Virus record (IMG/VR): IMGVR_UViG_3300035670_012130
Span: 1 to 64,000 of that record
Origin: a virus
Length of the DNA stretch: 64,000 bases
Direction: 5' to 3' (one strand)
Under the pieces are notes generated by a model that worked only from the letters and a program-made list of their open reading frames with translations, searched no databases and was not told where the DNA came from. Both the position numbers and the translations under genes were made by a program. This document shows, piece after piece, positions 25,877 through 46,638 of this stretch (positions are counted from its first letter, which is position 1; the number at the start of each line of letters is the position of its first letter).

Positions 25877-27190
25877 ATGACTAAAGAAGAATTACTAAAA
25901 TTAGTTGAAAATTATATTATAAGTGAACCAAGCAAAAAATGGAGACCTGGCAAAGATCATGTTCATTACGCTGGTCCTTATTTTGATCACACTGAAATTG
26001 TTAGATCAGTCTCTACATTATTGGATGGCTGGTTAGTATTGGGTGCTGAAGCTTACAAAGCTGAAAAGAAATTAGCGTCATTATTTGGCAAAAATCATGC
26101 GTTATTGACTAACTCAGGTAGTAGCAGCAACCTTCTCATGATGTCTGCACTTAAGTCAAAAAGATACCTCAATTTACCTGAAGGTACAAAGGTTTTGACA
26201 CCTATTGCTGGATTTCCTACAACTATTAATCCTATTTTTCAATGTGGATTCAAGCCTGTTTTTGTAGATATTACTTTAGATGGCTTGAATTTAAATTTAG
26301 ATGATGTTGAAGCTACATTACAAGCAGATCCAGAAATCAAAATTATTACATTTGCTCATGTTTTAGGAAATCCACCTGACATGTACAGATTATTAGATAT
26401 TATTGATCACTATGGTTTAATTTTATTAGAAGATTGTTGTGATGCTTTGGGTTCAACTTTTGACGGTAATCCTTTGGGCAGTTTTGGAACAATGGCTTCT
26501 TGTTCATTTTACCCAGCTCATCATATTACTTGTGGAGAAGGCGGACTGGTTGTTTGTAATGATGATAATTTAGAAAGAGTAATTCGTTCTATTCGTGATT
26601 GGGGACGTGGCTGTTTCTGCATTGGTAAGCAAAATATCACTGAGTGTGGTGCTTGTAATAAAAGATTTTCTGAATGGCTGCCTAGTATCCCGGGAGAAGT
26701 TTTTGATCACAAGTATGTCTATGAAGAAATTGGATACAACTTAAAGCCAATTGAAGTTCAAGCTAGTATGTTATTAGCTCAAATTGATAAACTCGGTGAA
26801 ATTAAAAAACTACGACAGAGAAATCATAGACTATTAACTGAAGTATTTGCAAAGTACGAAGAATATTTTGTTCTTCCAGTAGCTCAAAAAAACTCAGATG
26901 TAAACTGGTTTGCTTTTCCGATTACGGTTAAAGATAATGCGCCTTTTAAGAGAAGTGATCTTTGTCAATATTTTGAATCACATAAAATTCAAACTAGACC
27001 ATACTTTGCTGGCAATATTTTAATGCAACCAGCTTATAGTCATTTAGTAGGAGATATGGATCTTAGTGATTTCCCAGTAGCTAAAAAAATTACTACAGAC
27101 ACATTTTTCTTGGGCACTTCACCAGTAATAACTGAAGAGCAGATTGCATACATTGGTGAAGTTTTAGATAGCTTTATGAACAAAGATTAG
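25877..27190 (+). CDS. rfbH: CDP-4-keto-6-deoxyglucose 3-dehydratase (E1/DdhC/RfbH)
   Basis: NSGSSSNL, SFYPAHHITCGEGG (His in place of the PLP Lys), RDWGRGCFC..CGAC Fe-S motif, DHKYVYEEIGYNLKP. Confidence 0.92.
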   Translation: MTKEELLKLVENYIISEPSKKWRPGKDHVHYAGPYFDHTEIVRSVSTLLDGWLVLGAEAYKAEKKLASLFGKNHALLTNSGSSSNLLMMSALKSKRYLNLPEGTKVLTPIAGFPTTINPIFQCGFKPVFVDITLDGLNLNLDDVEATLQADPEIKIITFAHVLGNPPDMYRLLDIIDHYGLILLEDCCDALGSTFDGNPLGSFGTMASCSFYPAHHITCGEGGLVVCNDDNLERVIRSIRDWGRGCFCIGKQNITECGACNKRFSEWLPSIPGEVFDHKYVYEEIGYNLKPIEVQASMLLAQIDKLGEIKKLRQRNHRLLTEVFAKYEEYFVLPVAQKNSDVNWFAFPITVKDNAPFKRSDLCQYFESHKIQTRPYFAGNILMQPAYSHLVGDMDLSDFPVAKKITTDTFFLGTSPVITEEQIAYIGEVLDSFMNKD

Positions 27191-27222
27191 TGTTAAAGAA
27201 CTAATAGAGTATAAGAATTAGT

Positions 27223-29010
27223 ATGTCTATAGAGAATAATTATATAGTTTCAGATCACATCGCAGAGTGGTTGGAAAATCACGAAATATCTGTGGTATTT
27301 GGAATTATTGGATCTGCTAATTCTTATATTTTTGATTCAATAATAAGAAGAGGATACACTAAAATTATATATATGCATCACGAACAAGCTGTTGCTATGG
27401 CTGCTGGTGCATACTATCGTACAAGTGGAAAGATTTCAGTTGCTATTGTTACTGCTGGTGGTGGCGCCTCTAATGCTATCACTGGAGTATTGAGTAATTG
27501 GGCTGATTCAATACCTTGTATCGTTATGTCTGGACAAGAATCTACAAAATATATTGAACAACATGAACACCTAAGAATGTATGGTACTCAGGGTTTTGAT
27601 GTAGTAAATATGGTTCAAAAAATCACCAAATTTGCCCAGATAGTAGATAAGCCAAGCGAGATTATTCTTTCTCTTGATAAAGCATATAAAATAGCTTTAT
27701 CTGGTAGGCAGGGTCCAGTTTGGCTTGATCTGCCTATGGATGTGCAATCTACAAAAATAAACAAATCAGAATTATTACCCAGTGAAACAGAATATTCTGA
27801 AGATTCAGACATTGACCTGAACTATCTTATTGAATTGATGAACGTATCTGAAAAACCCGTAATTTTAGCTGGACATGGGATTCGATTATCAAAGTCAATA
27901 AATGAATTCAACTGTCTGGTTTCTAAGTTTCAAATTCCTATATTGCATTCTTGGTCAGCAATTGATGTCATTTCAAGTGATAATCCTCTTAATTTTGGGT
28001 GCCCGGGGATTTATGGGCAGAGAGTTGCTAATTTTATAATTCAAAATTGTGATTTATTAATTGTAATTGGAAGCCGTCTAGCATTACCTCAAACAAGTTA
28101 TAACATTGATAATTTTGCTCCTAATGCTAAAATTGTTATGATCAATAATGACGAAAATGAATTAAATAAACATTCTCGCTATGAAATTAAAATAAATTCT
28201 GATTGCAAAAAATTTATTGAATCTTTGATGCTTTATTCGCCTGATTCTTATAAACCTGAGTGGGTAGACAAATGCAATTTTTATAAGCAAGAATTCCCTT
28301 TGATTGAAGATTGCCATTTGAAAGACAATGAAAATTTTGACAATTCATATGTGTTTATTAATCAAATATCTCAGATTTTGGATGATGATCATATTATTGT
28401 CATAGGTCAAGGAACGCCTTTACCTTGTGCTCATCAAGCTCTTTTTCACAAAAGTAATCAAACAATATTTGCATCTAATGGATTAGGAGAAATGGGCAAT
28501 GGACTTCCTTCTGCTATTGGCGCTGCAATAGCTTCTCCTGAAAAGAAAATAATTCTTTTTGACGGTGATGGGAGCTCTATGATGAATTTACAAGAAATGC
28601 AAACTTTGATAGGGTACAACATTCCATTAAAAATTGTCATTTTTAATAATGATGGATATTTGTTTATCAAGCATACACAGAAGATGTTATTTGAAGGAAG
28701 ATACACTGGAGTTGATGCTGAAACTGGAGTATCTCTTCCTAAATTTTCTAAAATTGCTAATGCATTCGGAATTGAATATTTCAGCAGTGTTGACAATAAT
28801 GTTCAAGAATTTCTAAATTTTGAAAGATGCGCAATATACGAAATCTTCATGAACCCAGAACAAGATTTAGTTCCAAAAGTTAAAGGTATAATGACAGAGA
28901 GTGGATTTTTATCACCACCAATCGAAGATATGTCGCCACTATTACCTTTAGAAACTATACAAAAATGCATGACAAAGGTTAATAAAATTTCTTATGAGAT
29001 AAGATCATGA
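27223..29010 (+). CDS. ThDP-dependent acetolactate-synthase-like enzyme (YerE-like carboligase)
   Basis: HHEQAVAMAA, GRQGPVWLDLPMDVQ, GDGSSMMNLQE..NNDGY; follows the 3-dehydratase. Confidence 0.88.
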   Translation: MSIENNYIVSDHIAEWLENHEISVVFGIIGSANSYIFDSIIRRGYTKIIYMHHEQAVAMAAGAYYRTSGKISVAIVTAGGGASNAITGVLSNWADSIPCIVMSGQESTKYIEQHEHLRMYGTQGFDVVNMVQKITKFAQIVDKPSEIILSLDKAYKIALSGRQGPVWLDLPMDVQSTKINKSELLPSETEYSEDSDIDLNYLIELMNVSEKPVILAGHGIRLSKSINEFNCLVSKFQIPILHSWSAIDVISSDNPLNFGCPGIYGQRVANFIIQNCDLLIVIGSRLALPQTSYNIDNFAPNAKIVMINNDENELNKHSRYEIKINSDCKKFIESLMLYSPDSYKPEWVDKCNFYKQEFPLIEDCHLKDNENFDNSYVFINQISQILDDDHIIVIGQGTPLPCAHQALFHKSNQTIFASNGLGEMGNGLPSAIGAAIASPEKKIILFDGDGSSMMNLQEMQTLIGYNIPLKIVIFNNDGYLFIKHTQKMLFEGRYTGVDAETGVSLPKFSKIANAFGIEYFSSVDNNVQEFLNFERCAIYEIFMNPEQDLVPKVKGIMTESGFLSPPIEDMSPLLPLETIQKCMTKVNKISYEIRS

Positions 29011-29690
29011 ACTTAACTTTGCAAACCATTCCTTCACCTGTTATATCAGAAATACTTTCAGATTCAAAACTTGATGGTATCGTTTTAGATACCGAGCATG
29101 GATGTTTCAATAATGAAACACTCTATAGTTGTATTCAAGTTATAACTCTATCAAATAAAAAATGCTTTGTTAGATTGACAGATTTCAATAAACAATTAAT
29201 TAGGATGTGCCTTGATGCTGGAGTTGATGGATTAATTTTTTCAACAATAGAAGATGAAAGCATAGCTTATAAGATTATCTATTATTGTAATTTTCCATCA
29301 AAATATGGCCAAAGAGGTTGCGGATTAGTTAGAGATAATAAATGGGGAAAATTACCTTTAGATCAAAAAAAACCAATTATTATTGCTCAAATTGAAACAA
29401 GTCAGGCCGTAGAAAATCTTGATAGCTTATTGAATGTACCCTTCGATTATTTCATAATTGGTCCATATGATTTATCATCTTCATTGGGTAAAGCTGGTGA
29501 TTTTGAATTCAAAACTTTCAAGAATTATATCGATATTATTTATAATAAAATTTCTCTTGATAAGTTAGGTTTATTTCTCCCTACTTTTGAGAATATGCAG
29601 ACATTATCTTTAGAAAAAAGACCAAAGTTGCTTATTTGGGGGATGGATACAAATTTTATCATTGACAGTATTGAAAGGATAAAAATATGA
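29007..29690 (+). CDS. HpcH/HpaI class II aldolase family protein
   Basis: LDTEHG, LDAGVDG, QIET..AVENLD, IGPYDLSSSLG. Confidence 0.88.
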   Translation: MNLTLQTIPSPVISEILSDSKLDGIVLDTEHGCFNNETLYSCIQVITLSNKKCFVRLTDFNKQLIRMCLDAGVDGLIFSTIEDESIAYKIIYYCNFPSKYGQRGCGLVRDNKWGKLPLDQKKPIIIAQIETSQAVENLDSLLNVPFDYFIIGPYDLSSSLGKAGDFEFKTFKNYIDIIYNKISLDKLGLFLPTFENMQTLSLEKRPKLLIWGMDTNFIIDSIERIKI

Positions 29691-30430
29691 ATGATTTGTT
29701 AGATAAACTTCGAGAAATTTCTAATCTTTACGGAGTTATTGGTATCAAGCAATCTTTTGAAGATGAAGGTGCATTACTAGAAGATGTTATTTCTGTCAGG
29801 CGAATTACTGAACTTTGTAATCTTTTATCTTTTGTGAAAGTGGGAGGTTGTGAAGCTAATACAGATATATACAACTGCCTCAAAATAGGTATAAATGGAA
29901 TTATTGCGCCTATGGTTGAAACACCTTTTGCAGTATCGAAATTTATGGATTGTTATGATAAAAAAGCACAATATTTTGTTGTTATAGAATCAAAAACTGC
30001 TTATGAAAACATTGATGACATTTTATCTATAGCTCATAATAAGTTGACAGGAATCATAGTAGGAAGATCAGACTTATCCAAATCATACAACTTGAATAAA
30101 AGTGAAGCTGACAGTGATTTTATACTTTCAATTACAGAAAATATTTTTGTAAAAGCAAAAAAGTATAATCTTTTGACTACATTAGGTGGTAATGTTTCTG
30201 TAAAAAGTTCAAAATTTATTGAAAAAATGTATCACCTTAATTTATTAAACAGAGTTGAAACTCGTAATGTTGTTATAGATTTAAACAACAATAATGTTAA
30301 TAAAATTGATTCAGTTATTCAAGAAGCAATAAACTTTGAAATTTTGCTTTTGAGAAATAAACTTCAAAATAGTTCTGCATTGATTGAAGACTATAAACGA
30401 AGAATTGATTTATTGAGCTCTAGAAAATAA
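29687..30430 (+). CDS. HpcH/citrate-lyase-beta family protein
   Basis: KQSFEDEG, VKVGGCEA..D, IIAPMVETPFA, IESKTA, VGRSDL. Confidence 0.8.
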   Translation: MNDLLDKLREISNLYGVIGIKQSFEDEGALLEDVISVRRITELCNLLSFVKVGGCEANTDIYNCLKIGINGIIAPMVETPFAVSKFMDCYDKKAQYFVVIESKTAYENIDDILSIAHNKLTGIIVGRSDLSKSYNLNKSEADSDFILSITENIFVKAKKYNLLTTLGGNVSVKSSKFIEKMYHLNLLNRVETRNVVIDLNNNNVNKIDSVIQEAINFEILLLRNKLQNSSALIEDYKRRIDLLSSRK

Positions 30431-31602
30431 TGAATAGATTTGAGAATTTAAAAAAAATTATTCAAGGCCAAAATTGTTTTAAGATGATTTGTGGTGCTGG
30501 AAACGAAGATACAAAACAGGTCAAAAAACTTGCTTTTGTTTATACTTTAGCTGGTACAAAAATTTTAGATGTTTCAGCAAATGTAGATGTAGTTAAAGCT
30601 GCAGTAGAAGGAATTAATTTAGCTTTTGATTATAGCTCGATTTTAGGAATTACCTTAGACACTAAACCTTATATTATGGTGAGTATTGGTATGCCAGGAG
30701 ATCATCATGTAAGAAAATCTTATATTGATCCTTACAAATGTATAGGATGTACTTTGTGTATTCCTGTTTGTCCAACTGATGCTATACCAAAGAATTTTGT
30801 CAAAGAATTAGATGTTTTCAAGCAATTAAATGGTTCTTTTGACGAACCTGATAGCTCTAAAGAAATTGTAATCAAAGATTTGTGTATTGGTTGTGGTAAA
30901 TGCAGCAATATTTGTCCCAAAGATGACATTATTTCATATAGACATAGCTTTAGAGAACTTTCTATTTTATTACCTCAATGTATGGAAGCAGGAGCAGAAC
31001 TTTTTGAGCTTCATGCTGCTGTAGGTGAAGATGATATTACTCTTCAAGAATGGAAGTTGATTTCTGAGATAAACAAAGAAAACTATAACTCAATGTGTTT
31101 AGACAGATTGAATCTTGGAAATTTAAAACTTGAACATAGAATTGACGAAGCTAGAAAAATTTCTGGCGACAAAATCATGGTACAAGCAGATGGCTATCCA
31201 ATGAGTGGTGGAGAAGATGACTATAACACTACTTTGCAAGCTGTTTCTTGTGCAGATGTTATAAACAAAAAATTCAACATGAAATTGAATAAGAAAAGAG
31301 AGATTGATATTTTAGGTAAAGAAAAAATCTCTGCTAAAAAAATCTACAAGTCTGCATCTGATCAATCAGTAATTCCAATCTTAATTTCTGGCGGGACAAA
31401 CTCATATTCTAAAGAATTAGCAAATTTATCAGGAGTAAGAATAAACGGTGTATCCATTGGTACATATGCTAGAGATCTTGTTGAAAAGTTTATTATAGAA
31501 GAGAATTTTTGGGATGATCATGATTTAATCAAATCCGCTTATTTAGCTGCTAGTGAATTAGTGATTAAGAGTAATAGGGTTTATGATGAAGAAAAAAGAT
31601 AG
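30430..31602 (+). CDS. ldpA: LdpA-like protein with two [4Fe-4S] motifs
   Basis: FKMICGAG, YTLAG..LDVSA, MVSIG..GDHHVRK, two CxxCxxCxxxCP motifs, QADGYPMSG, SGGTN, GTYAR. Confidence 0.8.
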   Translation: MNRFENLKKIIQGQNCFKMICGAGNEDTKQVKKLAFVYTLAGTKILDVSANVDVVKAAVEGINLAFDYSSILGITLDTKPYIMVSIGMPGDHHVRKSYIDPYKCIGCTLCIPVCPTDAIPKNFVKELDVFKQLNGSFDEPDSSKEIVIKDLCIGCGKCSNICPKDDIISYRHSFRELSILLPQCMEAGAELFELHAAVGEDDITLQEWKLISEINKENYNSMCLDRLNLGNLKLEHRIDEARKISGDKIMVQADGYPMSGGEDDYNTTLQAVSCADVINKKFNMKLNKKREIDILGKEKISAKKIYKSASDQSVIPILISGGTNSYSKELANLSGVRINGVSIGTYARDLVEKFIIEENFWDDHDLIKSAYLAASELVIKSNRVYDEEKR

Positions 31603-31966
31603 TTATGTTATTGCTGTAGATTTTGATGGAACTCTCTGTGAATACGCTTTTCCTAAAATTGGAGAGCAAAAGCAACATCACAAAGAACTTTTGAATTTAT
31701 TAATTGCAATGAGACAAAAAGGTCATAAACTAATTCTTTGGACTTGTCGTGGTGATAATGACGAATATCCTTGTTTAACAGAAGCCATCATGTGGTGTAA
31801 AAATCAAGGACTCGAGTTTGATGCAATAAATGAAAATATTATTGGAACTAAAAAACTTTCTGGTCCTAGTCCAAAAGTTGTAGCTGATTTTTATTTAGAC
31901 GACAAAGCATTAGTTTTTAATGATGAAAGTTTTATAAACACAATAAAATTTATTGAATCTATATAA
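31583..31966 (+). CDS. Small HAD-superfamily hydrolase
   Basis: IAVDFDGTL, LILWTCR, KVVADFYLDDKA. Confidence 0.85.
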   Translation: MMKKKDSYVIAVDFDGTLCEYAFPKIGEQKQHHKELLNLLIAMRQKGHKLILWTCRGDNDEYPCLTEAIMWCKNQGLEFDAINENIIGTKKLSGPSPKVVADFYLDDKALVFNDESFINTIKFIESI

Positions 31967-31992: not shown

Positions 31993-31994
31993 AT

Positions 31995-32285
31995 TTAAAA
32001 TGGAACTTTACCTCTAAGTATATCCCACAGCATTATCCAATCACTAATTTTTGCTTTCACTGGATCTTTGAATGCAGCTGGTTGATTTTTTTCAAAGAAA
32101 TAATGACCAGACCATGCAAAAGGGTAAACAACAAATGGTGTTAGCAATAAGAACCAATAATATCCAAACTTCAAACAAAAAACAACCCACAAAATAGTCA
32201 TGAATTGTCCTAATACATGTAATCTTCTGCAAATCTTATTTTGATGCAGAGTAAGATACATCTCATAATATTCTTTCATATTCAT
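31995..32285 (-). CDS. DUF962/Mpo1-like small membrane protein
   Basis: YLTLHQNKICRRLHVLG..YPFAWSGHYFFEKNQPAAF; ATGA overlap at 32285 gives the likely start. Confidence 0.85.
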   Translation of the reverse strand: MNMKEYYEMYLTLHQNKICRRLHVLGQFMTILWVVFCLKFGYYWFLLLTPFVVYPFAWSGHYFFEKNQPAAFKDPVKAKISDWIMLWDILRGKVPF

Positions 32286-33052
32286 ATAGTACAAACTCCT
32301 AATTTTTGAACAACTTTGGTAGCACATTCTTGAGCAAATTTAATTGCTAAGTCAATGTCATTAGTTCTTGAAAATTCACATGTCAATGCAGAGATGAATG
32401 TATCTCCAGCGCCAGACATATCTTTGCAGTTGACTCTTTCAACTGGAAACATTTTACCTTGAAATTCACATCCTTTATCAGAATGAGTTATTATCAACTT
32501 GTTATATAGATTTAAATTATCAATAGTGTGTTTGGTTTTATCGAATTCAACATGGTTTATCTTAATAAAATCACAAGAAGTGCACCATGTTCCTAAAATT
32601 TTCTTAGTATCAAGAAAAACATTTTTATTATGATGACTGATTTCCCAAATATGATCTTCTGACAAAAACCCCTTACAATAATCACTTATTATTATAGAAT
32701 CGTAATGTACTCCATCATAAAAATTGTCAATAATTTCTTCAATAACTTCAAAATTTAATGCAGAGACTTTTTGTTCTTCATCCACTCTTATCAGGAGACT
32801 ATTAGTACGCTCATCTACTAATCTGGTCTTAACAATATTTTCTGGTTGAGTTATAAGAGTTACTTTTGCACCAATAGCTTCAATATTTGCTTTTACATTC
32901 AGTGCCATACCACCATTTAATTTTGTTTCAATAGGATTGAATACTGGAGCTGGACCTTCTGGAGCTAATCTAGGTACATGTCCATATGTAAAAACATCAG
33001 TACAAGAATCTCCTATCACTAGAATGTTGATATGATTATATAATTCTTTCAT
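32282..33052 (-). CDS. PfkB-family sugar kinase, RfaE/HldE domain I-like (heptose-7-phosphate kinase)
   Basis: LVIGDSCTD..YG...RLAPEGPAPV, ISDYCKG, DMSGAGDTF. Confidence 0.85.
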   Translation of the reverse strand: MKELYNHINILVIGDSCTDVFTYGHVPRLAPEGPAPVFNPIETKLNGGMALNVKANIEAIGAKVTLITQPENIVKTRLVDERTNSLLIRVDEEQKVSALNFEVIEEIIDNFYDGVHYDSIIISDYCKGFLSEDHIWEISHHNKNVFLDTKKILGTWCTSCDFIKINHVEFDKTKHTIDNLNLYNKLIITHSDKGCEFQGKMFPVERVNCKDMSGAGDTFISALTCEFSRTNDIDLAIKFAQECATKVVQKLGVCTI

Positions 33053-34720: not shown

Positions 34721-34721
34721 T

Positions 34722-36819: not shown

Positions 36820-36828
36820 TTTTTAACC

Positions 36829-37800: not shown

Positions 37801-37808
37801 TTTATTTC

Positions 37809-38747: not shown

Positions 38748-38810
38748 ATAAGATAATTATACCAACGATTGATTTGCGATATAGTTTTATTTTGATGGTA
38801 TAAATTAGAT
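38748..38810. promoter_or_regulatory. Back-to-back divergent leaderless-type promoters
   Basis: (-) TGGTATAAT 8 nt before ATG 38747; (+) TGGTATAAA 6 nt before ATG 38811. Confidence 0.65.
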
Positions 38811-39599: not shown

Positions 39600-40309
39600 A
39601 TATAATATTTGCGGTTATAAGAAATCCAGAATTTGTGATAAATAATAAATATACCTCATTCATTAATTCACTTAAAAATTTGTCTGAGACATCTAAAATT
39701 GTTTTAATAAATGCAAGTTCAAAAGAAATTAAACTAGATCGTGCTAATATTGAAGTTTTGAATACTACTGCAATGGCTTCAGATTTAAACATTTATGGAG
39801 CAATTTCAGGATACTTGAATCAGTACCAAAATGACGAAAATGATTATGTTGCGATCTGTAACGTAGAAAATATATTGTTTACTCGTGATCCTTTATTGTT
39901 TCTAAAGCATTTTGATAAAGATCTATATTTTTATAGTTTGAGCCATATCAATAACGAAAGTACTCAAATAAAATCAGATTATGAGAATTTTGTAAAAACC
40001 TGTAATTTTTATATGGGAAATGATTTCGATTCTTTATCAATTGGTACTCATTTCTTTGGCGGTAAATTATCAGCTATGAAAGCATTGTTATTAACATTGT
40101 TTTTGAATGTCAACAGAAACTCAGCCAATACAATTACCTCTCAAGCTGTTTTGTCTTATGTTCACAAGCACTTTTATAATTTATTCAAAGTTCAAATGTT
40201 TACAAATCAATTTTGCATGCTTGTAGATGATAAAAGCAAGGCTGAGTCTATTTTAGACGATGAAGAATTATCTAAAAAACAATATGCAGTAATATACTTT
40301 ACCAGCTAA
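39596..40309 (+). CDS. Degenerate paralog of the GT-like proteins
   Basis: CNVENILFTRDPL aligns with xDxxDV.FQ.DPF; FFGG; SQ replaces DQ. Confidence 0.5.
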   Translation: MNIIFAVIRNPEFVINNKYTSFINSLKNLSETSKIVLINASSKEIKLDRANIEVLNTTAMASDLNIYGAISGYLNQYQNDENDYVAICNVENILFTRDPLLFLKHFDKDLYFYSLSHINNESTQIKSDYENFVKTCNFYMGNDFDSLSIGTHFFGGKLSAMKALLLTLFLNVNRNSANTITSQAVLSYVHKHFYNLFKVQMFTNQFCMLVDDKSKAESILDDEELSKKQYAVIYFTS

Positions 40310-40700
40310 TTTCCCAATCTTTGAAATCAGCTGCTAAACAATCAATTTTATAATCTTTTCTACCGCCAACGACTTCTTGAATTTTGTTTTTGGCGGTATT
40401 TCTTATTCCATTTAATCCATGTGTCAATTCGAGATTATTCCCATCTTTAATGCCTTTGCGATAATTGGTTTCATTATGCCAAATATGTAAATTCATCTGA
40501 GAAAGAACTACTATAGCTCTAATTACTTGAGCATCAACTATTGCGTTATTTTCGTCTAAATGTGCTTGTATATCATGAACTATAGATGCTATTTCTTCAG
40601 CATATTCACTTTTATGATCTGTAATAAAAACTTCCTTAAGTTGAACTATAGAAAGTCTGTCAATTAATTCCGAAAGAGTTGGTAAATATTTGCGATTCAT
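40299..40700 (-). CDS. DUF6165/DUF4254-like helical protein
   Basis: LSELIDRLSIVQLK..NLHIWHNE..NGIRNTAKNKI. Confidence 0.55.
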   Translation of the reverse strand: MNRKYLPTLSELIDRLSIVQLKEVFITDHKSEYAEEIASIVHDIQAHLDENNAIVDAQVIRAIVVLSQMNLHIWHNETNYRKGIKDGNNLELTHGLNGIRNTAKNKIQEVVGGRKDYKIDCLAADFKDWEISW

Positions 40701-40741
40701 ATCTTGAATTATACCTTGCTAAATGCACGTATAATATTTTT
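40701..40741. promoter_or_regulatory. Back-to-back divergent leaderless-type promoters in 41 bp
   Basis: (-) GGTATAAT 7 nt before ATG 40700; (+) CGTATAAT 6 nt before ATG 40742. Confidence 0.7.
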
Positions 40742-41695
40742 ATGAAAATTGTATACATAACAGGTTGTTTAGGATTTATTGGAAGACATGTGGCTCTATC
40801 TTGTCTGGAAAAGGGGTGGTATGTATATGGAATTGACAAATGTACTTACGCATCTGACATTAATTTATTGAGTGAATTTAATAAATATAAAAATTTCAAC
40901 TTTCAGCAAATTGATATCTGTTCTTTAGATAGGTTGGTAGATTGTGATTATTTCATAAACGTAGCAGCAGAAACGCATGTAGATAATTCTATTAGAAAAA
41001 GTGATGATTTTATTCATTCAAATATTAATGGAGTTTACAATATATTAGAATTACTTAAAAACTACAAAAAAGAAGGCTATGTAACACCTACATTTTTACA
41101 TTTTAGCACTGATGAAGTTTATGGTGATATTACTGATGGAGCGCATATAGAAACTGATTTATTAAGGCCTTCTAATCCTTATTCAGCTACCAAAGCAGCA
41201 GCTGATCAACTCATCACTGCTTGGTCTAGAACTTATGATTTGCCATATGTTATTGTTAGACCCACTAATAATTATGGATGCGGTCAATATGTTGAAAAGC
41301 TAATTCCCAAAGCCTGTAAATTTTTATCATTAGGAAGGAAAATTCCATTACACAACAATGGAACACCAACCCGAAATTGGCTGCATGCTAAAGATACAGC
41401 TAAAGCAGTAATGACTATAGTTGAATCAGATGTAAAAAATGAAATTTATAATATTGCTGGTGGATTTGAACAATCTAACCTTGATACTGTTCACAAAATT
41501 ATCAAAGAGTTTTACCCAGGCAGTGTCTTTGAAACAGAAGATTACATAAATTTCAATGTTCATAGACCAGGACAAGATGTAAGATATGCTCTTGATGATT
41601 CGAAGATAAGAGCATTGGGTTGGAAGCCTGAATGTGTGTTTGATGAAGAAATTAAAGAAATAGTAAAATACTATAAAGAAAATTTTGTATGGTAA
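40742..41695 (+). CDS. rfbB: dTDP-glucose 4,6-dehydratase
   Basis: TGCLGFIG, DKCTYA, AAETHVDNSI, STDEVYG, PSNPYSATKAA, RPGQDVRYALD. Confidence 0.92.
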   Translation: MKIVYITGCLGFIGRHVALSCLEKGWYVYGIDKCTYASDINLLSEFNKYKNFNFQQIDICSLDRLVDCDYFINVAAETHVDNSIRKSDDFIHSNINGVYNILELLKNYKKEGYVTPTFLHFSTDEVYGDITDGAHIETDLLRPSNPYSATKAAADQLITAWSRTYDLPYVIVRPTNNYGCGQYVEKLIPKACKFLSLGRKIPLHNNGTPTRNWLHAKDTAKAVMTIVESDVKNEIYNIAGGFEQSNLDTVHKIIKEFYPGSVFETEDYINFNVHRPGQDVRYALDDSKIRALGWKPECVFDEEIKEIVKYYKENFVW

Positions 41696-41702
41696 TTATC
41701 AA

Positions 41703-42719
41703 ATGAAAGTAAATGATTACATTGCTGAAAGATTGTATCAAGAGGGTATTAGACACGTTTTTGGCATAATGGGTGGTGGAGCTGCTGGTATAAATGATGG
41801 TTTTATCAGAAGCAAAATTGAATACATTTGTTTTCATCATGAACAAGGTGCTTCGAATGCAGCTTTGGCTTATAGCAAGTCCAAAAATCAGATTTCAGTT
41901 GTTAACCCTACCACTGGATGCGGAGGATTAAATTGTGTAACTTCTCTAGTGTCAGCCTTTCAAGATAGTGTGCCTTTATTATTTATATCAGGTAATTATC
42001 GACTTCAAGAGACTACCAGATATCTTAATAAAACTAAAAACATAAGCTTGAGAAAATTTGGTTTACAAGAGCATGATATTATTGAACATGTCAAGTATGC
42101 TACAAAGTTTTTTGCATTTATAGAAGACAAGAACGATGTTCCAATGGTCCTTGAAAAAGCAATTCAAAAATGTGTTAATGACAGACCTGGACCTTGCTGG
42201 ATTGATATTCCTTCTGATATTCAAACCCAAGAAATCGATAATAGTTTTTTATTTCCAAATATTGAAACTGAAAAAAAAATTTTAAACAAAACTTATATTG
42301 AAGAATTTTTCAGTATTTTAAATAATAGCAAGAGACCATTGATTTTGTTAGGTTCAGGGATAAATATTTCTGATTGTAAACAAGAAGTAATTGATTTTAT
42401 TGAATTGAATCAAATTCCAACAGTCAGTACATTTTCTGCAAAAAATATTTTGCCTTTTGATCACAAATTAAGTATTGGCACTATTGGAATAAAAGGAAGT
42501 AGAGCTGGAAATTTTGCTTTACAAAATTGTGATCTGTTAATTGCTTTAGGTTGTTCATTAAATTCATCACATACGGGATATGATAAAAAACTATTCTCAC
42601 CAAAATCCAAAAAAATCTTGGTAAATATTGATGAGAATGATTATTTGAAAAATAATGTAGATTTTGATCTATTTATAAAAAAAGACTTAAAAGGCTTCTT
42701 AAATGACATCAAGAATTGA
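41703..42719 (+). CDS. ThDP-dependent ALS-like enzyme, N-terminal and middle domains (split gene, part 1)
   Basis: HHEQGASNAA, TTGCGGLN, RPGPCWIDIPSDIQ, GSRAGNFALQNCDLLI. Confidence 0.85.
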   Translation: MKVNDYIAERLYQEGIRHVFGIMGGGAAGINDGFIRSKIEYICFHHEQGASNAALAYSKSKNQISVVNPTTGCGGLNCVTSLVSAFQDSVPLLFISGNYRLQETTRYLNKTKNISLRKFGLQEHDIIEHVKYATKFFAFIEDKNDVPMVLEKAIQKCVNDRPGPCWIDIPSDIQTQEIDNSFLFPNIETEKKILNKTYIEEFFSILNNSKRPLILLGSGINISDCKQEVIDFIELNQIPTVSTFSAKNILPFDHKLSIGTIGIKGSRAGNFALQNCDLLIALGCSLNSSHTGYDKKLFSPKSKKILVNIDENDYLKNNVDFDLFIKKDLKGFLNDIKN

Positions 42720-43458
42720 CTGGATTGAAAAGTGTAATTATTGGAAAGAAAAATGGCCTTTGTATACAGATTGTTTCATTGATGACAATGATGGAATAAA
42801 TTTATATACAATAATTGAGACTATAAATAATTGCTCTAACACCAAAGACATTTTGATGACTGACGCTGGTTCTGCAAATTATGTTTGTTGCCAAAATTTA
42901 AAATTAAAAAAAGATCAAAAATTTATTTTTCCTGCAGCTCAAGGTGATATGGGATTTTGTATACCTGCTTGTGTTGGAGCCCAATTGGCAAATCCTGACC
43001 ATAATATAATTGCAATTATTGGAGATGGCAGTTTTCAAACAAATATTCAGGAACTTGCTTCTATAAAAGCAATAAAATCTAATTCTAAAATTGTAGTTTT
43101 GAACAATGAAGGCTATCTAAGTATTAGAAACACACAAAGTAAATTTTTTAATGGAAATGTCTATGGTGAATCTAAAAGTACAGGCTTATGGTTTCCTGAT
43201 CTTAAAAAAATTGCTACAGCATATGAATTCGAATATTTCAGAATCGAAAGTAATAAAGATTTAGTTGATATTTTTGAAAACGAACTTCACAGTGAAAAAC
43301 CAATTATTTTTGACATCAAATGCAAATATTCTCAAGATGTAATACCAACTTCAGCTTTAAAAATAGATAAAAATTCAGGTAAAAAAATTCAATGTGGCTT
43401 AGATGACATGTATCCTTTCATGAGCGATGAAGAGCATTCAAAAGAGATGTTATATTGA
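42703..43458 (+). CDS. ThDP-dependent ALS-like enzyme, C-terminal ThDP-binding domain (split gene, part 2)
   Basis: QGDMGFCIPACVGA, GDGSFQTNIQEL..NNEGYLSIRNTQ. Confidence 0.85.
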   Translation: MTSRIDWIEKCNYWKEKWPLYTDCFIDDNDGINLYTIIETINNCSNTKDILMTDAGSANYVCCQNLKLKKDQKFIFPAAQGDMGFCIPACVGAQLANPDHNIIAIIGDGSFQTNIQELASIKAIKSNSKIVVLNNEGYLSIRNTQSKFFNGNVYGESKSTGLWFPDLKKIATAYEFEYFRIESNKDLVDIFENELHSEKPIIFDIKCKYSQDVIPTSALKIDKNSGKKIQCGLDDMYPFMSDEEHSKEMLY

Positions 43459-44249
43459 TGAATATACTAATTACTGGTGGAGAAGGCTATGTTGCCTCAA
43501 ACTTATATAAGAACCTTGAATCAAGTTATAATTTAACTACAATTTCAAGAAAAGATTTAGATTTGACTATTTCTTCAGAGGTAAATGCTTTTTTTGAAAA
43601 TAAATTTTTCGACATTGTTTTTCATTGTGCTGTATGTGGAGGTAGCAGGTTAAAATTAGATAGTTATTATGAAATGGATAATAATTTGAAAATGTATTAT
43701 AATCTACATCAATTAAAAGATAAGCATTTCAAAAAATTTATCACATTTGGTTCAGGTGCAGAAACACACTCATCTCATACTCCTTATGGATTGAGCAAAC
43801 ATGTAATAGCTCAATCCATCTCTGAAACTGAGAACTTTTATAATCTTGTAATTTTTGCTCTTTTTGATTCAAGTGAATGGGAATCTAGATTTATAAAAGC
43901 AAATATTTTACGTTACATAAATAAAGATTCTATAATTATTCACCAAGATAAATACATGGATTTTTTTTACATGAATGATTTTATAAAAGTAATAAAATAC
44001 TATATTGAAAATCAAAGCTGCCCAAAATCAATTAATTTTTCATACGGTGAATCAACAAAACTTTCAGACATTGCAAAAAAAATCAACAATCTAAATAATT
44101 ATAAAGTTGATATTTGTATAGAAAATCAAGAAATTGCACCAAGCTATTGTGGAGATTATAATTTGGATGCATTGAATATTAATTTCGATGGCTTATACAA
44201 TGGCATTGAAAAAGTTTTTGATGAAATAAATTCTGCAAATTACAAATAA
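43458..44249 (+). CDS. NAD-dependent epimerase/dehydratase
   Basis: ILITGGEGYVA, FGSGAE, YGLSK. Confidence 0.82.
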   Translation: MNILITGGEGYVASNLYKNLESSYNLTTISRKDLDLTISSEVNAFFENKFFDIVFHCAVCGGSRLKLDSYYEMDNNLKMYYNLHQLKDKHFKKFITFGSGAETHSSHTPYGLSKHVIAQSISETENFYNLVIFALFDSSEWESRFIKANILRYINKDSIIIHQDKYMDFFYMNDFIKVIKYYIENQSCPKSINFSYGESTKLSDIAKKINNLNNYKVDICIENQEIAPSYCGDYNLDALNINFDGLYNGIEKVFDEINSANYK

Positions 44250-44271
44250 TAAAAATAAGTATAATGTAAAT

Positions 44272-44928
44272 ATGTCTAGATTTGATACAGATTTAATTTT
44301 CAAGATTGATGAAAAATGGTTTTGGCGTAAAGATGATTACAATTTGAAGACCTACAATGGCCTTTCAAGTGAGACAGATCTACTCAAAGTTGTTCAACCC
44401 TATCTCAAAGGTAAAAAAGTCGTAGTTCAAGCTGGTGGAAATTGTGGTATGCAAGTTGTTAAATTTGCAGAATTTTTTGATACAGTTTACACTTTTGAAC
44501 CTGATCCTATTAATTTTCATTGTTTAGTTAACAATTTGCCATATGATAATGTAATAAAATTCCAGTGTTGTCTGGGCGATTCTCATAAAATGGTTTCAAT
44601 GACTACTTTGCCCAATGAAATAGGTGGTTTTTATGTCAATGAAAATTTGGGTACAACTCCTACACTTAGAGTTGATGATTTGAATTTAACTTACTGTGAT
44701 TTTTTACAGCTTGATGTTGAGGGTTATCAACTTTATGCACTTAAAGGTGCTATAAACACAATCAAGAAATTCCATCCAGTTATTAGTGTTGAATTTGATT
44801 GGGCTTTTAGATATAATCACAGCACATCTGATATTAGAAATTTTTTAGCAAGCTTAGGCTACGAAAAAGTCGAGTCTTACACAACTGATCATATTTATAT
44901 TTATAAAAATCTTTCATTTAGTTTATGA
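44272..44928 (+). CDS. FkbM-family SAM-dependent methyltransferase
   Basis: VVQAGGNCG, YTFEPDP.NF, LQLDVEGYQ..ALKGA..TI...PVI. Confidence 0.88.
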   Translation: MSRFDTDLIFKIDEKWFWRKDDYNLKTYNGLSSETDLLKVVQPYLKGKKVVVQAGGNCGMQVVKFAEFFDTVYTFEPDPINFHCLVNNLPYDNVIKFQCCLGDSHKMVSMTTLPNEIGGFYVNENLGTTPTLRVDDLNLTYCDFLQLDVEGYQLYALKGAINTIKKFHPVISVEFDWAFRYNHSTSDIRNFLASLGYEKVESYTTDHIYIYKNLSFSL

Positions 44929-45821
44929 AAATATTAATTACAGGTGCTGGTGGTTTTTTAGGATCAAATATTTGCAATTTGCTATCTAAAAAGCATGAAA
45001 TTTTAGCTATATCTAGAAATTTTGAAAAACTAAATAGAGAAAGTAATATAATCTGTCATAAATTAGATATGGCAGATTATAATCTTTTAAAAGAACAAGT
45101 GCAAAATTTTATTCCAGAAGTAGTAATTCATTGCGCATGGATGGGCGGAAATTCTTCTAGAGACATTAATGAACTGTGGCAAGCAGATAACATCATTTAC
45201 AGCAATGAACTTCTTAAGTTTTGCTCATCTCTAGGGATTAGACATTTTATAGGATTTGGATCTTCTGCTGAGTATGGAAATCATTTATGCAAACTAAATG
45301 AACTCACAGTTTGTAAACCTACAACCATGTACGGTATTACTAAGAATTCATTTAGACACATAGCAGAGAATTATTGTGAATCTAATAATATCAATTTCAG
45401 TTGGGTAAGACCAGTTTTTACTTATGGTCCAAGAGATGTTGAGACAAGACTAATTCCTAAAGCTATTATATCTTTTTTGAAAAACCAAGATCTTGTATTG
45501 AATAAATGTTCAGCCGTAGTAGATTATTTATTTGTTGAAGATTTTTGTAAAGCCATACAATGCATTGTTGAACAAGAAATAATTGGAGATTTTACCATAT
45601 CTTCTGATGATGAAATTAATATAAAAAAATTAGTTGAAATGATTTATGAAAAAATTAATTCTAAATCTAATTTAATTTTTGATGAAAGTAAACCTGATTA
45701 CAGCCATCAATATGTTTGTGGTTCATCAGAAAAATTAAAATCTTTGTCTGATTGGCGCCCGCTGATTTCTTTAGAGAATGGTTTAGATAAAACCATTTCC
45801 TACTTTGAAAAGTTCGTATAA
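44925..45821 (+). CDS. NAD-dependent epimerase/dehydratase (reductase-like)
   Basis: ITGAGGFLG, GSSAEYG, YGITK, RPVFTYGP. Confidence 0.88.
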   Translation: MKILITGAGGFLGSNICNLLSKKHEILAISRNFEKLNRESNIICHKLDMADYNLLKEQVQNFIPEVVIHCAWMGGNSSRDINELWQADNIIYSNELLKFCSSLGIRHFIGFGSSAEYGNHLCKLNELTVCKPTTMYGITKNSFRHIAENYCESNNINFSWVRPVFTYGPRDVETRLIPKAIISFLKNQDLVLNKCSAVVDYLFVEDFCKAIQCIVEQEIIGDFTISSDDEINIKKLVEMIYEKINSKSNLIFDESKPDYSHQYVCGSSEKLKSLSDWRPLISLENGLDKTISYFEKFV

Positions 45822-45828
45822 TATTTTT

Positions 45829-46638
45829 ATGAATAATCTTTTGCTAAATTTTCTAGATGGTAATCGCATACTCGAATCAATTGATGCAGATATATACCTT
45901 GCATCATTATCAAAACACAAAACATTTAAAAAACTTGTATGTGTTTACAATGTTGATTCCGAGCAAATCAAAAAACTTGAGAAGTATTATGATTATGTAA
46001 TACCAGTTGAAAAAGGATTAACACCAATAAACTTTTGCTATTTAGCTTATTATAATTGGCTTTGTGAAAATGGCAAAGATTTCAAGTATGTAATGCATTG
46101 CGATATGCGTGATGTTGTAATTCAAAAAGATCCATTTGAATTTATGGAAAATCATCCAGATAAAGAACTATTTTTAGTTTGTGAAGGAATGAAAATTAAA
46201 GAGAATGATTGCAACAAAATGTGGCATGACTGGGTTTTAAATACAATAATTTACAATAAAGAAACCTACGATGATTCTTATGTTTTGAATGGAGGAACAT
46301 ATGGTGGGAAAACAAATGCTTTTCTAAATTACTGTACATTGATACTCACAGCAATGAATAGAAAGTTCCATTATATTATTCCAGATCAAGCTATGTTGGG
46401 TTATTTATATAGACAATTAAGTCAAAATCCAAATGTTATGCTAACTCATCCTATGACAGATACTTTTTGTGCAACTGGCGAGGCAATAAAAAGAGATAAC
46501 GTTGATGTTTATTTTGACGGTACAAATGTCTGCAATCAATTAGGGGAAAAGTATTGTTTATTCCATCAATGGGATAGAACTGAGGTGGCTGAACTGTTAA
46601 GAAATAAGTTTAAAAATACTTTGTCATTCAGCCTTTAA
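45829..46638 (+). CDS. Putative GT-A-fold glycosyltransferase (paralog of 38811)
   Basis: CDMRDVVIQKDPF, LNGGTYGG, PDQA, FHQWDR; ATG 45829 lies 6 nt after GTATAAT. Confidence 0.65.
   Translation: MNNLLLNFLDGNRILESIDADIYLASLSKHKTFKKLVCVYNVDSEQIKKLEKYYDYVIPVEKGLTPINFCYLAYYNWLCENGKDFKYVMHCDMRDVVIQKDPFEFMENHPDKELFLVCEGMKIKENDCNKMWHDWVLNTIIYNKETYDDSYVLNGGTYGGKTNAFLNYCTLILTAMNRKFHYIIPDQAMLGYLYRQLSQNPNVMLTHPMTDTFCATGEAIKRDNVDVYFDGTNVCNQLGEKYCLFHQWDRTEVAELLRNKFKNTLSFSL

Follow-up and report, generated by a model that had tools for sequence, protein, structure and literature searches.

A probable branched-deoxysugar island with its own glycosyltransferases between the capsid and tail genes of an uncultured phage-G-like jumbo phage

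Introduction

Gene clusters for acyl-branched 3,6-dideoxyhexoses of LPS or LOS have been described for yersiniose (ddhABCD-yerE-yerF), erwiniose (ErwE/F/I/J), caryophyllose (MMAR_2331-2333) and gastriose, and the characterised acyl-branched sugars all occur in LPS, LOS or antibiotics (PMC9306805). Pelagimyophages and cyanomyophages carry hypervariable islands of sugar and glycosyltransferase (GT) genes in their structural regions (PMC7029224; P-SSM2, S-SCSM1, S-SCSM2R and S-H68-type clusters). Glycosylation of capsid and tail tube is known for mycobacteriophages, as far as the summary of Freeman 2023 in PMC12619734 describes it.

The window analysed here is a stretch of 64,000 nucleotides from an uncultured phage-G-like jumbo phage, and it holds an island of sugar synthesis and attachment genes. 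Like the LPS/LOS clusters, the island combines a 4,6-dehydratase, an E1-type 3-dehydrase, a YerE-like ThDP carboligase (ALS1, nearest to JanthE) and an NAD(P)H reductase with a pyruvate aldolase for longer keto-acid donors, a SAM methyltransferase and a GT. Unlike them, it is phage-borne, lacks a nucleotidyltransferase (DdhA) and an E3 (DdhD), has an RmlB-type and not a CDP-type dehydratase, adds a ColD-type route, and carries three ThDP systems, including a split YerE-like one, with no Wzx/Wzy link. A short E1alpha and E1beta pair beside deoxysugar genes is shared with the avilamycin/everninomicin type, but the phage subunits are very short (about 201 and 178 aa).

The pelagimyophage and cyanomyophage islands are likewise non-syntenic, lie within the virion module and hold GT8-type GTs with rfaE-like and deoxysugar genes; in cultured Synechococcus phages, a cluster of this type that follows a baseplate gene includes an E1-type dehydrase that is 41% identical. 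The present phage differs in lineage (phage-G-like MCP and T5-like tube), in having no tail-fibre genes inside the island, and in its ThDP branch-adding enzymes and aldolases; ALS1 had no match above 33% identity among GenBank phages. In mycobacteriophages Che8, Corndog and Myrna, phage GTs act on capsid and tail-tube subunits, going by the summary account, and the island here lies exactly between capsid and tube genes. Those phages use host sugars, whereas the present island encodes long predicted rare-sugar pathways. Mycobacteriophage virion glycosylation reportedly also involves methyltransferases. Giant viruses are said to glycosylate virion proteins autonomously (chlorovirus capsid glycans, mimivirus fibril sugars). 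They share with the island virus-encoded rare-sugar pathways, GT-A/GT8-like transferases with a matching fold and methyltransferases, but their hosts are eukaryotes, their sugars are different ones (rhamnose, viosamine, bacillosamine), and homology is limited to the fold.

Position and composition of the island

A total of 25 ORFs were found at 25877-46638, bounded on the left by the major capsid protein (MCP) gene and its terminator and on the right by genes that include one with a tail-tube fold. The flanking features are as follows.

24946-25800, + strand: MCP, left anchor (PHROG 2522 major head protein, E 3.6e-68)
about 25818-25850, + strand: strong terminator 3' of MCP, hairpin and T-run read directly in the sequence
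46635-47222, - strand: right anchor, 195-aa protein with a tail-assembly-chaperone lead only (atlas 0.84-0.86)
47222-48463, - strand: right anchor, 413-aa tail-tube-fold protein (AF2 model, pLDDT 66, and Foldseek)

The MCP was 48% identical to gp27 of Bacillus phage G, 25% identical to its distant homologue in Myrna and 94-100% identical across about 30 IMG/VR relatives. The 413-aa protein matched the T5 pb6, p140 and DT57C tube proteins in Foldseek (E 1e-8). Downstream of the MCP terminator, a -10-like box, TGGTAAAAT, was read 6 nt upstream of the RfbH ATG, and the same layout was present at the portal gene. The GC content was 26-35% in the island, 46% in the MCP gene and 29-31% in the tail genes on the other flank. 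Pfam and NCBIfam searches of the island ORFs gave the following family calls.

25877-27190, + strand: RfbH, E1/RfbH/DdhC-type PMP and [2Fe-2S] NDP-4-keto-6-deoxyhexose 3-dehydrase (NCBIfam RfbH)
27223-29010, + strand: ALS1, YerE/JanthE-like ThDP carboligase, predicted branch-adding (three TPP_enzyme domains)
29007-29690, + strand: HpcH/HpaI class II pyruvate aldolase 1 (Pfam PF03328; PDB matches YfaU, HpaI)
29687-30430, + strand: HpcH-fold protein 2, HpcH2 (Pfam PF03328, 35.5 bits)
30430-31602, + strand: LdpA-like protein, two [4Fe-4S] clusters (NCBIfam LdpA, 130 bits, below cut-off; Fer4 domains)
31583-31966, + strand: small HAD phosphatase, BT0820-like (NCBIfam NF046079, 80.6 bits, below cut-off)
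31995-32327, - strand: Mpo1/DUF962-like protein (Pfam PF06127, E 7.5e-29)
32282-33052, - strand: PfkB kinase, RfaE-domain-I-like, N-terminally short (TIGR02198, 119 bits, below cut-off)
33049-33558, - strand: RmlC-type 3,5-epimerase (PF00908, E 6e-34)
33551-34753, - strand: ColD-type His 3-dehydrase, second DegT protein (best PDB match ColD, 182 bits)
34722-35258, - strand: short E1beta, ThDP pair member (Pfam Transket_pyr/E1_dh search)
35258-35863, - strand: short E1alpha, ThDP pair member (same search)
35860-36819, - strand: extended SDR, GDP-fucose-synthase-like (Pfam, NCBIfam)
36829-37800, - strand: extended SDR, GDP-fucose-synthase-like (Pfam, NCBIfam)
37809-38747, - strand: extended SDR, GalE/dehydratase-like (Pfam, NCBIfam)
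38811-39599, + strand: GTa, GT-A paralogue (28% identity to the terminal GT, aligns in GT family alignment A1; weak GT_PLOD match)
39596-40309, + strand: GTb, degenerate GT-A paralogue (hhalign probability 97.8% against the A1 profile)
40299-40700, - strand: 133-aa ORF (no family match in Pfam or NCBIfam)
40679-41695, + strand: RmlB-type NDP-glucose 4,6-dehydratase (TIGR01181, 301 bits)
41685-43458, + strand: split ALS/YerE-like ThDP carboligase (Pfam; N and middle domains 41685-42719, C domain 42703-43458)
43455-44249, + strand: SDR4, candidate YerF-like side-chain reductase (Pfam Epimerase)
44272-44928, + strand: FkbM-type methyltransferase (PF05050, E 4.5e-13)
44925-45821, + strand: SDR5 (Pfam Epimerase, E 2e-38)
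45805-46638, + strand: terminal GT-A (GT8/GT6-like), unnamed family (AF2 model, pLDDT 90)

The initial annotation had placed about 23 genes between the MCP terminator and the end of the tail operon. The location stood, with the hairpin and T-run on the left and the T5 pb6-like tail-tube fold on the right, and each enzyme class it listed was recovered in its place by Pfam and NCBIfam; the count did not stand, and the LdpA-like, Mpo1/DUF962 and 133-aa ORFs were missing from its list. The 133-aa ORF was 82-100% conserved in relatives, where it directly followed the homologue of the 37809-38747 SDR gene, and showed no relation to the island GT family.

A hydropathy scan of all island ORFs found none with more than one hydrophobic segment, and the Mpo1/DUF962 protein was the sole one with a clear segment. 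No flippase, Wzy, priming transferase, polymerase, ligase or Gtr-type protein was found in the island. In the whole 106-kb record there was no GT2 or NTP_transferase domain; a phage-encoded nucleotidyltransferase appears to be absent, with the starting NDP-sugar presumably drawn from the host.

Predicted sugar biosynthesis

RfbH scored 440.9 bits against the NCBIfam curated cut-off of 423 and 321 bits against Yersinia E1 (3BCX), and it kept the CxC...C Fe-S cysteines as well as a His where E1 has H220. No E3-type reductase partner for E1 was identified. The LdpA-like protein is a possible redox partner; its gene was missing from most RfbH-bearing loci and travelled together with the HpcH2 and HAD genes, the three co-occurring in relatives L097 and L137. 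In the second DegT protein, a His aligned to ColD H188, a residue with PDB entries for its N and K mutants. RmlB scored 301 bits with TIGR01181 compared to 63 bits with the CDP-type model. The carrier nucleotide (dTDP or CDP) is a prediction, and so is every sugar product.

The best PDB match of ALS1 was the YerE-like enzyme JanthE (8RPH, 501 bits; AHAS, 257 bits), and the GDG..NN motif was present. JanthE was also the top match of the split ALS-like enzyme, by a small margin. This enzyme was two-part in relatives L097 and L098 as well (49-60% identity) and fused in three more distant homologues (L141, L157 and L158), so a frameshift error was rejected as the source of the split, which the initial annotation had read correctly. 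The E1alpha/E1beta pair (34722-35863) is a candidate two-carbon branch donor and may resemble AviB1/B2 of avilamycin/everninomicin-type branched sugars. The subunit lengths (178 aa and about 200-201 aa) were conserved in 17-18 loci. About 40 viral contigs shared a core of RfbH-RmlB-(ALS-type or E1ab-type)-SDR4. Either of the two ThDP types could fill the single position between RmlB and SDR4, and in many contigs the E1 pair stood there instead of the ALS-type enzyme. SDR4 followed the ThDP enzyme in more than 20 contigs.

The pathway order was drawn from family membership and the published acyl-branched sugar scheme. Starting from host NDP-glucose or another NDP-hexose, RmlB would give a 4-keto-6-deoxy sugar, from which the 3-OH would be removed by the E1/RfbH-type (Fe-S, PMP) or the ColD-type His dehydrase. 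The ThDP carboligases (intact YerE/JanthE-like, heritably split, and short E1alpha/beta pair) would add a carbon branch at C-4, and the two HpcH pyruvate aldolases may provide longer keto-acid donors, a step in which the LdpA-like Fe-S protein and the HAD phosphatase possibly take part. The product would be reduced or epimerised by SDRs, O-methylated by FkbM and transferred by soluble GT-A (GT8-like) enzymes, the terminal one being fixed beside the tail genes. The gene set fits the scheme that has been published for yersiniose, erwiniose, caryophyllose and other acyl-branched 3,6-dideoxy sugars (PMC9306805); by analogy with that scheme, HpcH aldolase 1 would supply the keto-acid donor. The agreement with these clusters supports the earlier proposal that the phage can make more than one kind of branched, deoxy and methylated sugar.

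Glycosyltransferases

The three island GTs are mutually paralogous, GT-A and GT8/GT6-like. Three GT-like proteins had been proposed before, and all three are GT-A paralogues, but in GTb the D..D (DxxD) motif is replaced by N..N (columns CNVEN vs CDMRD in the profile). The terminal GT model matched glycogenin and GT6 enzymes in Foldseek (E about 1e-8), several of its best BFVD fold matches were giant-virus GT8-like proteins, and D100, D103 and H254-Q-W-D257 were invariant in the family alignment. Homologues of this family are so far known from metagenomic contigs only, with none among GenBank phages. In more than 20 loci the island ended with a gene of the family, adjoining the homologue of 46635-47222, and GT identity followed the sugar cassette, not the adjacent tail genes.

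Island variation among relatives

More than 20 independent IMG/VR assemblies (MCP 94-100% identical) had the same site, and its content ranged from no sugar genes (L026) through a lone GT (L015) to 8-22 kb of different sugar chemistry elsewhere. In L169 a recombination breakpoint lay inside the island. Genome G003 had neither the island nor any GT of the terminal family; the complete genome G005 had no GT of that family but a GT4 at its place, and its site also held homing endonuclease, TnpB, ART and RusA genes. Island ORFs were intact and kept 60-100% identity. The variable content among assemblies with near-identical MCPs, together with the internal breakpoint, shows that the island is phage-owned, accessory and swappable, and not a chimera.

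It is extremely improbable that an assembly chimera or host contamination has wrongly joined a bacterial O-antigen cluster to the phage DNA. Island GC below that of the head genes would fit such an origin, but the tail genes on the other side share the low GC, the island has the phage-type -10-before-ATG layout common to the portal gene, and more than 20 assemblies made independently from different samples share both junctions, which effectively refutes it. The synteny comparison suggested in the initial annotation, with the site between the same MCP and tail junctions throughout, thus excluded the chimeric host insertion it had raised.

Discussion

It is very probable that the locus is a branched-deoxysugar island which belongs to the phage and brings GTs of its own, while the whole reading with a virion-protein acceptor is tentative, a little short of even. 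The best guess for the acceptor would be a protein exposed on the virion, whether of the capsid, its decoration or the tail tube, which we regard as possible with somewhat less than even confidence. It draws on position and precedent: the locus is fixed between MCP and tube genes even in minimal form, the island lacks membrane machinery, its -10-box layout is common to the portal gene, and mycobacteriophages offer a precedent for glycosylated capsids and tail tubes. Against it, no acceptor motif tracking GT presence was found in the MCP or decoration proteins, and GT identity goes with the sugar cassette and not with the adjacent tail genes. The missing membrane machinery had earlier been taken to indicate a virion acceptor; the absence was confirmed but does not settle the target, because soluble GTs could act on host lipid-linked glycans. 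Such GTs may put phage-made sugars on host O-antigen, capsule or S-layer intermediates, using host flippase and ligase during a long jumbo-phage infection, and this host-surface remodelling is a substantial alternative, only slightly less likely than the virion. The GT8-like fold and RfaE-like kinase favour it, both being characteristic of LPS pathways, and so do the dispensability of the island (G003, G005), the reliance on host NDP-sugar and the fact that characterised acyl-branched dideoxy sugars are all in LPS or LOS (PMC9306805). Pelagimyophage and cyanomyophage structural-region islands with GT8, rfaE and deoxysugar genes have also been read as putative host-surface modifiers. Against it, a priming transferase, flippase, polymerase, ligase and Gtr-type protein are all missing from the island, none of its ORFs has more than one hydrophobic segment, and it keeps its place between capsid and tail-tube genes even at one-GT size.

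It is improbable that the products are free or lipid-linked metabolites, or that a recombination hotspot carries the island as selfish cargo lacking any consistent function. Acyl-branched sugars occur in antibiotics too, and the homing endonuclease, TnpB, ART and RusA genes of G005 indicate a general insertion hotspot; yet most relatives have glycan genes at the site, of widely differing chemistry, ORFs are intact at 60-100% identity, and the recurrent last-gene GT (terminal family in more than 20 loci, GT4 in G005) argues for selection on a glycosylation function. Less probable still, and very unlikely, is hypermodification of phage bases against restriction, as in T4-type glucosylation and newer glycan-hypermodified DNAs. 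Jumbo phages often carry modified DNA, and phage GTs commonly act on DNA. However, five related records, among them one genome that is 100% complete and one that is 89% complete, had no ThyA-family (dNMP hydroxymethylase) gene; the island GTs are GT-A/GT8-like, whereas T4 DNA glucosyltransferases have the GT-B fold; and the locus belongs to the virion module and not to that for replication, with island-less relatives existing.

What is new is that close relatives with a near-identical capsid differ in, or lack, the sugar genes at this site. If the acceptor is the virion, each phage strain would have its own glycan coat. If host-surface remodelling holds, receptors would be masked from superinfecting phages or grazers, and the cassette diversity would mirror host serotype diversity and phage-phage competition.

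Phage backbone and flanking genes

The record is an IMG/VR virus of 106 kb, the initial 64 kb of which make up the window. Its major capsid protein (MCP) was 48% identical to gp27 of Bacillus phage G, and the near-complete relatives had genomes of 300-379 kb, which indicates that the record covers part of the genome of a phage-G-like jumbo phage. A strong terminator was located directly after the MCP gene. Phage G has only small genes of unknown function after its MCP. The genes flanking the sugar island (25877-46638) are listed below.

Genes flanking the island
14918-17290: portal gene, upstream
17416-21552: 1378-aa protein containing a protease, upstream
24946-25800: MCP (PHROG 2522, E 3.6e-68), upstream
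46635-47222: 195-aa protein, downstream
47222-48463: 413-aa tube-fold protein, downstream

The structural model of the 413-aa protein, of moderate quality (pLDDT 66), resembled in fold the duplicated tube domain found in T5 pb6, p140 and the DT57C tube (Foldseek E 1e-8), and its 195-aa neighbour gave a weak lead to a tail chaperone. No match in GenBank phages was found with tblastn for the tail proteins at 47222-48463 and 48850-50346 or with a 10-kb megablast, and no link to the published 'moraphage' jumbo-phage lineage was found.

Several other features of the backbone were also identified. A decoration-like protein is encoded by two tandem paralogues (23412-24068 and 24258-24911) just upstream of the MCP gene; they differ mainly in S/T/G-rich loops, and the gene was single-copy at this place in all relatives examined. 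In two more distant relatives, the MCP gene was followed after a few kb by the gene of a second, very diverged MCP paralogue, which was 27% identical, had long insertions and was extended at its C-terminus (L030:12766-13836; L038 near 16024). Very large plus-strand ORFs of 952, 1306, 3461, 960, 1221, 1450, 988 and 1282 aa followed the tail module from window position 63975 to contig position 102317 and presumably encode baseplate or fibre proteins. Beyond them, outside the window, approximately 3.2 kb of the 106-kb contig (102317-105513) had no ORF of at least 70 aa, and no tRNA was found there with ARAGORN.

Gene content of the island

The island contains 25 ORFs in three strand blocks. The initial annotation had counted about 23 genes; its enzyme classes were borne out by family searches and the number was corrected.

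Gene blocks of the island
Block 1 (plus strand): RfbH/E1 (from 25877); intact ALS-like ThDP enzyme, ALS1 (27223-29010); two HpcH-fold proteins, HpcH1 (29007-29690) and HpcH2 (29687-30430); LdpA-like protein with two [4Fe-4S] (30430-31602); small HAD (31583-31966)
Block 2 (minus strand): three SDRs, including SDR3 (37809-38747); short E1alpha/E1beta pair (34722-35863); second DegT protein; RmlC; PfkB kinase; Mpo1-like protein
Between blocks 2 and 3: GT-like gene pair, GTa (38811-39599) and GTb (39596-40309), plus strand; 133-aa ORF, minus strand
Block 3 (plus strand): RmlB; split ALS-like enzyme (41685-43458); SDR4 (43455-44249); FkbM; a further SDR; terminal GT-like protein (45805-46638)

No structural ORF was found inside the island with Pfam and NCBIfam, and its GC content equalled that of the tail genes. 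The reported lack of flippase, Wzy or Gtr-type machinery held: none of the 25 proteins was polytopic, a clear hydrophobic segment was present in the Mpo1-like protein only, and GtrA, GtrB, membrane Gtr(type), a Wzx/Wzy module and GT2 were absent. NTP_transferase and GT2 domains were not found across the whole 106 kb, and no nucleotidyltransferase was found in the phage.

Deoxysugar and branched-sugar enzymes

RfbH scored 440.9 bits with NF011936 and so exceeded the curated equivalog threshold of 423. Alignment to wild-type 3BCX and to 3BB8 (H220K) placed a His at the E1 H220 position, where the PLP lysine would be, and the [2Fe-2S] cysteines (CxC...C) aligned with those of Yersinia E1 with a 4-residue insert. 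For the second DegT protein, the closest structural relative was ColD (182 bits); it has a His at ColD H188, its AHH aligning with wild-type SHH and with the mutants SNH and SKH. The CDP-glucose pathway genes DdhA/DdhB were not represented, there being no NTP_transferase match and an RmlB-type dehydratase instead. No E3 (DdhD)-type reductase was detected in the island or the record with Fer2 or FAD_binding_6. The LdpA-like protein was considered as the missing E3 and rejected: among approximately 100 RfbH-bearing loci it occurred only alongside HpcH2 and the HAD (L097/L016, L137), so it is not a general partner of E1. It may still have a local role.

ALS1 is a three-domain ThDP enzyme whose best solved relative was JanthE (8RPH; 501 bits, against 257 bits for a true AHAS), a characterised YerE-like aldehyde-ketone carboligase. 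The margin for the split enzyme was small (153 bits for JanthE and 144 for AHAS). From sequence, a candidate YerE-like activity is predicted, in which a keto acid would be joined to an NDP-4-keto-3,6-dideoxyhexose. Two relatives (343+245 aa and 340+250 aa) also had the second ALS-like enzyme in two pieces, and in three more distant ones it was a single fused protein; the split form is inherited. The order RfbH-RmlB-ThDP enzyme-SDR4 was found about 40 times across other IMG/VR contigs, and its ThDP position was filled by either an ALS-type enzyme or a short E1alpha/beta pair, an exchange that speaks for functional equivalence of the two as branch donors.

A unifying scheme for acyl-branched sugars was published in 2022 (PMC9306805). 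Its cluster starts with genes for CDP-4-keto-3,6-dideoxyglucose, and a C4-C8 keto-acid donor is built by a pyruvate aldolase, which in M. marinum is an aldolase/citrate-lyase family protein; further parts are a YerE-like ThDP enzyme, an NAD(P)H reductase, a GT and sometimes a SAM methyltransferase. The island holds deoxy-keto-sugar genes, ThDP enzyme, reductase, pyruvate aldolase, SAM methyltransferase and GT within 21 kb. The aldolase of the scheme gives a role to the two HpcH proteins, to which the initial annotation had assigned none: HpcH1 resembles YfaU and HpaI, and the HpcH aldolases may supply longer keto-acid donors to the ThDP carboligases. The ColD-like protein, E1alpha/E1beta pair, RmlC and two GDP-fucose-synthase-like SDRs look like a second, colitose-like branched route.

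Glycosyltransferases

The terminal GT belongs to a family of proteins of approximately 266-270 aa, found in metagenomes only and without a Pfam domain; clusters containing its members were all named 'hypothetical', and no homologue was found in GenBank phages. Its AlphaFold model (pLDDT 90, 34-sequence alignment) matched with Foldseek the retaining GT-A enzymes glycogenin (GT8) and the blood-group and alpha-1,3-galactosyltransferases (GT6) at E ~1e-8, and BFVD matches were uncharacterised phage proteins and giant-virus GT8-like proteins. D100, D103 and H254-Q-W-D257 were invariant in the family. GTa is a 28% identical paralogue and GTb a distant one (hhalign 97.8%) with both Asp changed to Asn, while the 133-aa ORF was unrelated. 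The C-terminal KN(T)LSFSL shared by FkbM and the terminal GT was rejected as a docking signal: L-x-F-[STVF]-[LI] is a common C-terminus within the GT family and the FkbM homologues of other loci end differently, so there is no conserved shared tag.

Variability of the site among relatives

IMG/VR was searched by alignment from the MCP and from the GT, with extra sequence of four larger records, and the interval from the MCP gene to the 195-aa tail-side gene was compared among relatives with MCPs 90-100% identical.

Versions of the interval between the MCP gene and the 195-aa gene in the window and in related loci (L) and larger records (G)
Window; 20.8 kb; the 25 ORFs
G004 (MCP 100%); 22.4 kb; content different in part
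G001; 17.7 kb; without RfbH
L019; ~8 kb; RfbH, RmlB, split ThDP enzyme, SDR4, GT
L020 (MCP 97%); 7.7 kb; nucleotidyltransferases, methyltransferase, RuBisCO-like, GT92/GT2, GHMP kinase, same-family GT, NlpC/P60
L015; 0.9 kb; GT alone
L026; 0.9 kb; without GT
G005 (MCP 90%); ~11 kb; homing endonuclease, TnpB, ART, RusA, polysaccharide pyruvyl transferase, GT4

The interval is a hotspot. Synteny across the related contigs showed a single site holding variable cassettes, and this comparison excludes an assembly chimera, so the chimeric host insertion considered in the initial annotation was not borne out. The content of L019 is effectively a minimal yersiniose-type cassette, and the sugar chemistry of L020 is unrelated to that of the window. 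L169 matched the window at 97-100% identity over the left part of the island and at 44-82% from FkbM rightwards, including the tail genes, which places a recombination breakpoint inside the island. The terminal GT gene invariably closed the island on the tail side, and its similarity varied with whether FkbM and SDR5 were present and not with the tail genes. No member of the GT family was found anywhere in G003 (84% complete) or G005 (100% complete), which makes it an accessory function.

The RuBisCO-large-subunit-like protein of L020 (12641-13816; PF00016, E 6e-33) adjoins a HAD-nucleotidyltransferase fusion, a GHMP kinase and a GT92/GT2 protein, a neighbourhood that places it in a phage sugar pathway. 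The G005 site (L028:11059-16044) carried a LAGLIDADG endonuclease, a ParB-like nuclease, an ART-PolyVal ADP-ribosyltransferase, an IS605 OrfB/TnpB and RusA, and after these came the polysaccharide pyruvyl transferase and GT4; with its endonuclease, TnpB, ART and RusA genes, the site is a general insertion hotspot. MAG contigs searched with RfbH gave a few short matches only, apparently mis-binned phage DNA. One of them (L196, JBBARF010000157.1, 7.4 kb) had phage protease, decoration and MCP (99% identical) genes with RfbH in a Bacteriovoracaceae bin, which is either a weak indication of the host or an error in binning; another (L193), in a Terrimicrobiaceae bin, had a GC content of 35% and the phage-like order RfbH-RmlB-HpcH2-ALS1-SDR4.

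Promoters and translation signals

Boxes and Shine-Dalgarno sites were read directly from the sequence. A (G)GTATAAT-like box was located 6-8 nt before the ATG of the operon-first island genes (25877, 37809, 38811, 40299 and 44272), and the same arrangement was found ahead of two genes outside the island, those of the portal (14918) and of the 816-aa tail protein (50330).

Regions containing the boxes
14905-14917: portal gene
25860-25876: RfbH
38748-38810: SDR3 and GTa
40701-40716: 133-aa ORF
44258-44271: FkbM
52781-52797: 816-aa tail protein

The genes of the abundant head proteins, MCP and decoration, had AAGGAG Shine-Dalgarno sites instead. This pattern is suggestive of transcription from sigma-70-type promoters of the phage or host that yields leaderless mRNAs; a consensus scan for sigma-70 promoters and terminators showed no enrichment.

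Acceptor of the sugars

A virion protein, as proposed in the initial annotation, is the acceptor that we tentatively prefer, given the position of the locus between capsid and tail genes and the absence of membrane machinery. Virion glycosylation has a precedent in giant viruses. Another is described in mycobacteriophages, as summarised in PMC12619734. Among the relatives, no MCP or decoration position and no acceptor motif tracked the presence of the GT: the MCP was almost invariant, and the decoration protein varied in its S/T/G-rich loops with no clear correlation. The sugars might alternatively be attached to a host envelope glycan, a somewhat more doubtful reading against which the same lack of membrane machinery speaks. 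The characterised acyl-branched sugars all occur in LPS, LOS or antibiotics (PMC9306805), GT8 and RfaE-like enzymes are typical of LPS, and comparable pelagi- and cyanomyophage islands were interpreted as host-surface modifiers (PMC7029224).

Phage DNA is a very unlikely acceptor, since five related records had no match to a ThyA-family (PF00303) hydroxymethylase and the GT fold is GT-A/GT8-like, not T4-like. Some other target, or no fixed target, is improbable. With a virion protein as acceptor, the phage might possibly bear a strain-specific capsid and tail glycan coat of self-made acyl-branched dideoxy sugars, with recombination at the hotspot swapping cassettes and giving rise to phage 'serotypes'.

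Comparison with known systems and significance

For two decades, sugar/GT islands have been reported in large aquatic phages, and phage sugar islands as such are already known. We know of none in large aquatic phages with a proven target. The present island resembles those of aquatic myophages in being non-syntenic in close relatives, inside the structural module and equipped with GT8-like, rfaE-like and deoxysugar genes (PMC7029224); unlike them, it has no tail-fibre or host-recognition genes inside, and the MCP is phage-G-like, not of a T4-like backbone. It also differs from seroconverting Gtr/O-antigen modules in having no GtrA, GtrB, Gtr(type) or Wzx/Wzy. In cultured Synechococcus phages, an E1-type dehydrase (41% identical) lies in a cluster of dehydratase, RmlC, SDR and GT genes after a baseplate gene.

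Three aspects appear to be new: the occurrence in a phage of branch-adding ThDP enzymes together with aldolases, a GT-A family without a GenBank phage homologue, and a sharply resolved polymorphism of cassettes at a single site next to a capsid protein that hardly varies. ALS1 had no match above 33% identity in GenBank phages, and titles and abstracts of literature joining yersiniose and phage reported no phage-encoded pathway.

These findings extend ThDP-dependent acyl-branched sugar chemistry to phages, beyond bacterial LPS, LOS and antibiotics. They also supply compact enzyme variants (the split YerE-like enzyme, E1 subunits of 200 aa and 178 aa and the new GT-A family) that could serve biocatalysis groups working on YerE and JanthE. 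The site is an unusually clean natural experiment, with dozens of genomes sharing a near-invariant capsid protein and one fixed site that is free of glycan genes, has just one transferase or carries different rare-sugar cassettes of 8-22 kb. If the acceptor is a virion protein, phage surfaces would be seen to diversify in a serotype-like manner, and cassette swapping would produce phage 'serotypes' comparable to bacterial O-antigen diversity. The glycan coat, if true, would be the first virion glycome of a tailed phage to come with rare-sugar biosynthesis of its own, and the phage surface would then be under strong diversifying selection, for instance by capsid-sensing host defences, adsorption traps or grazers.
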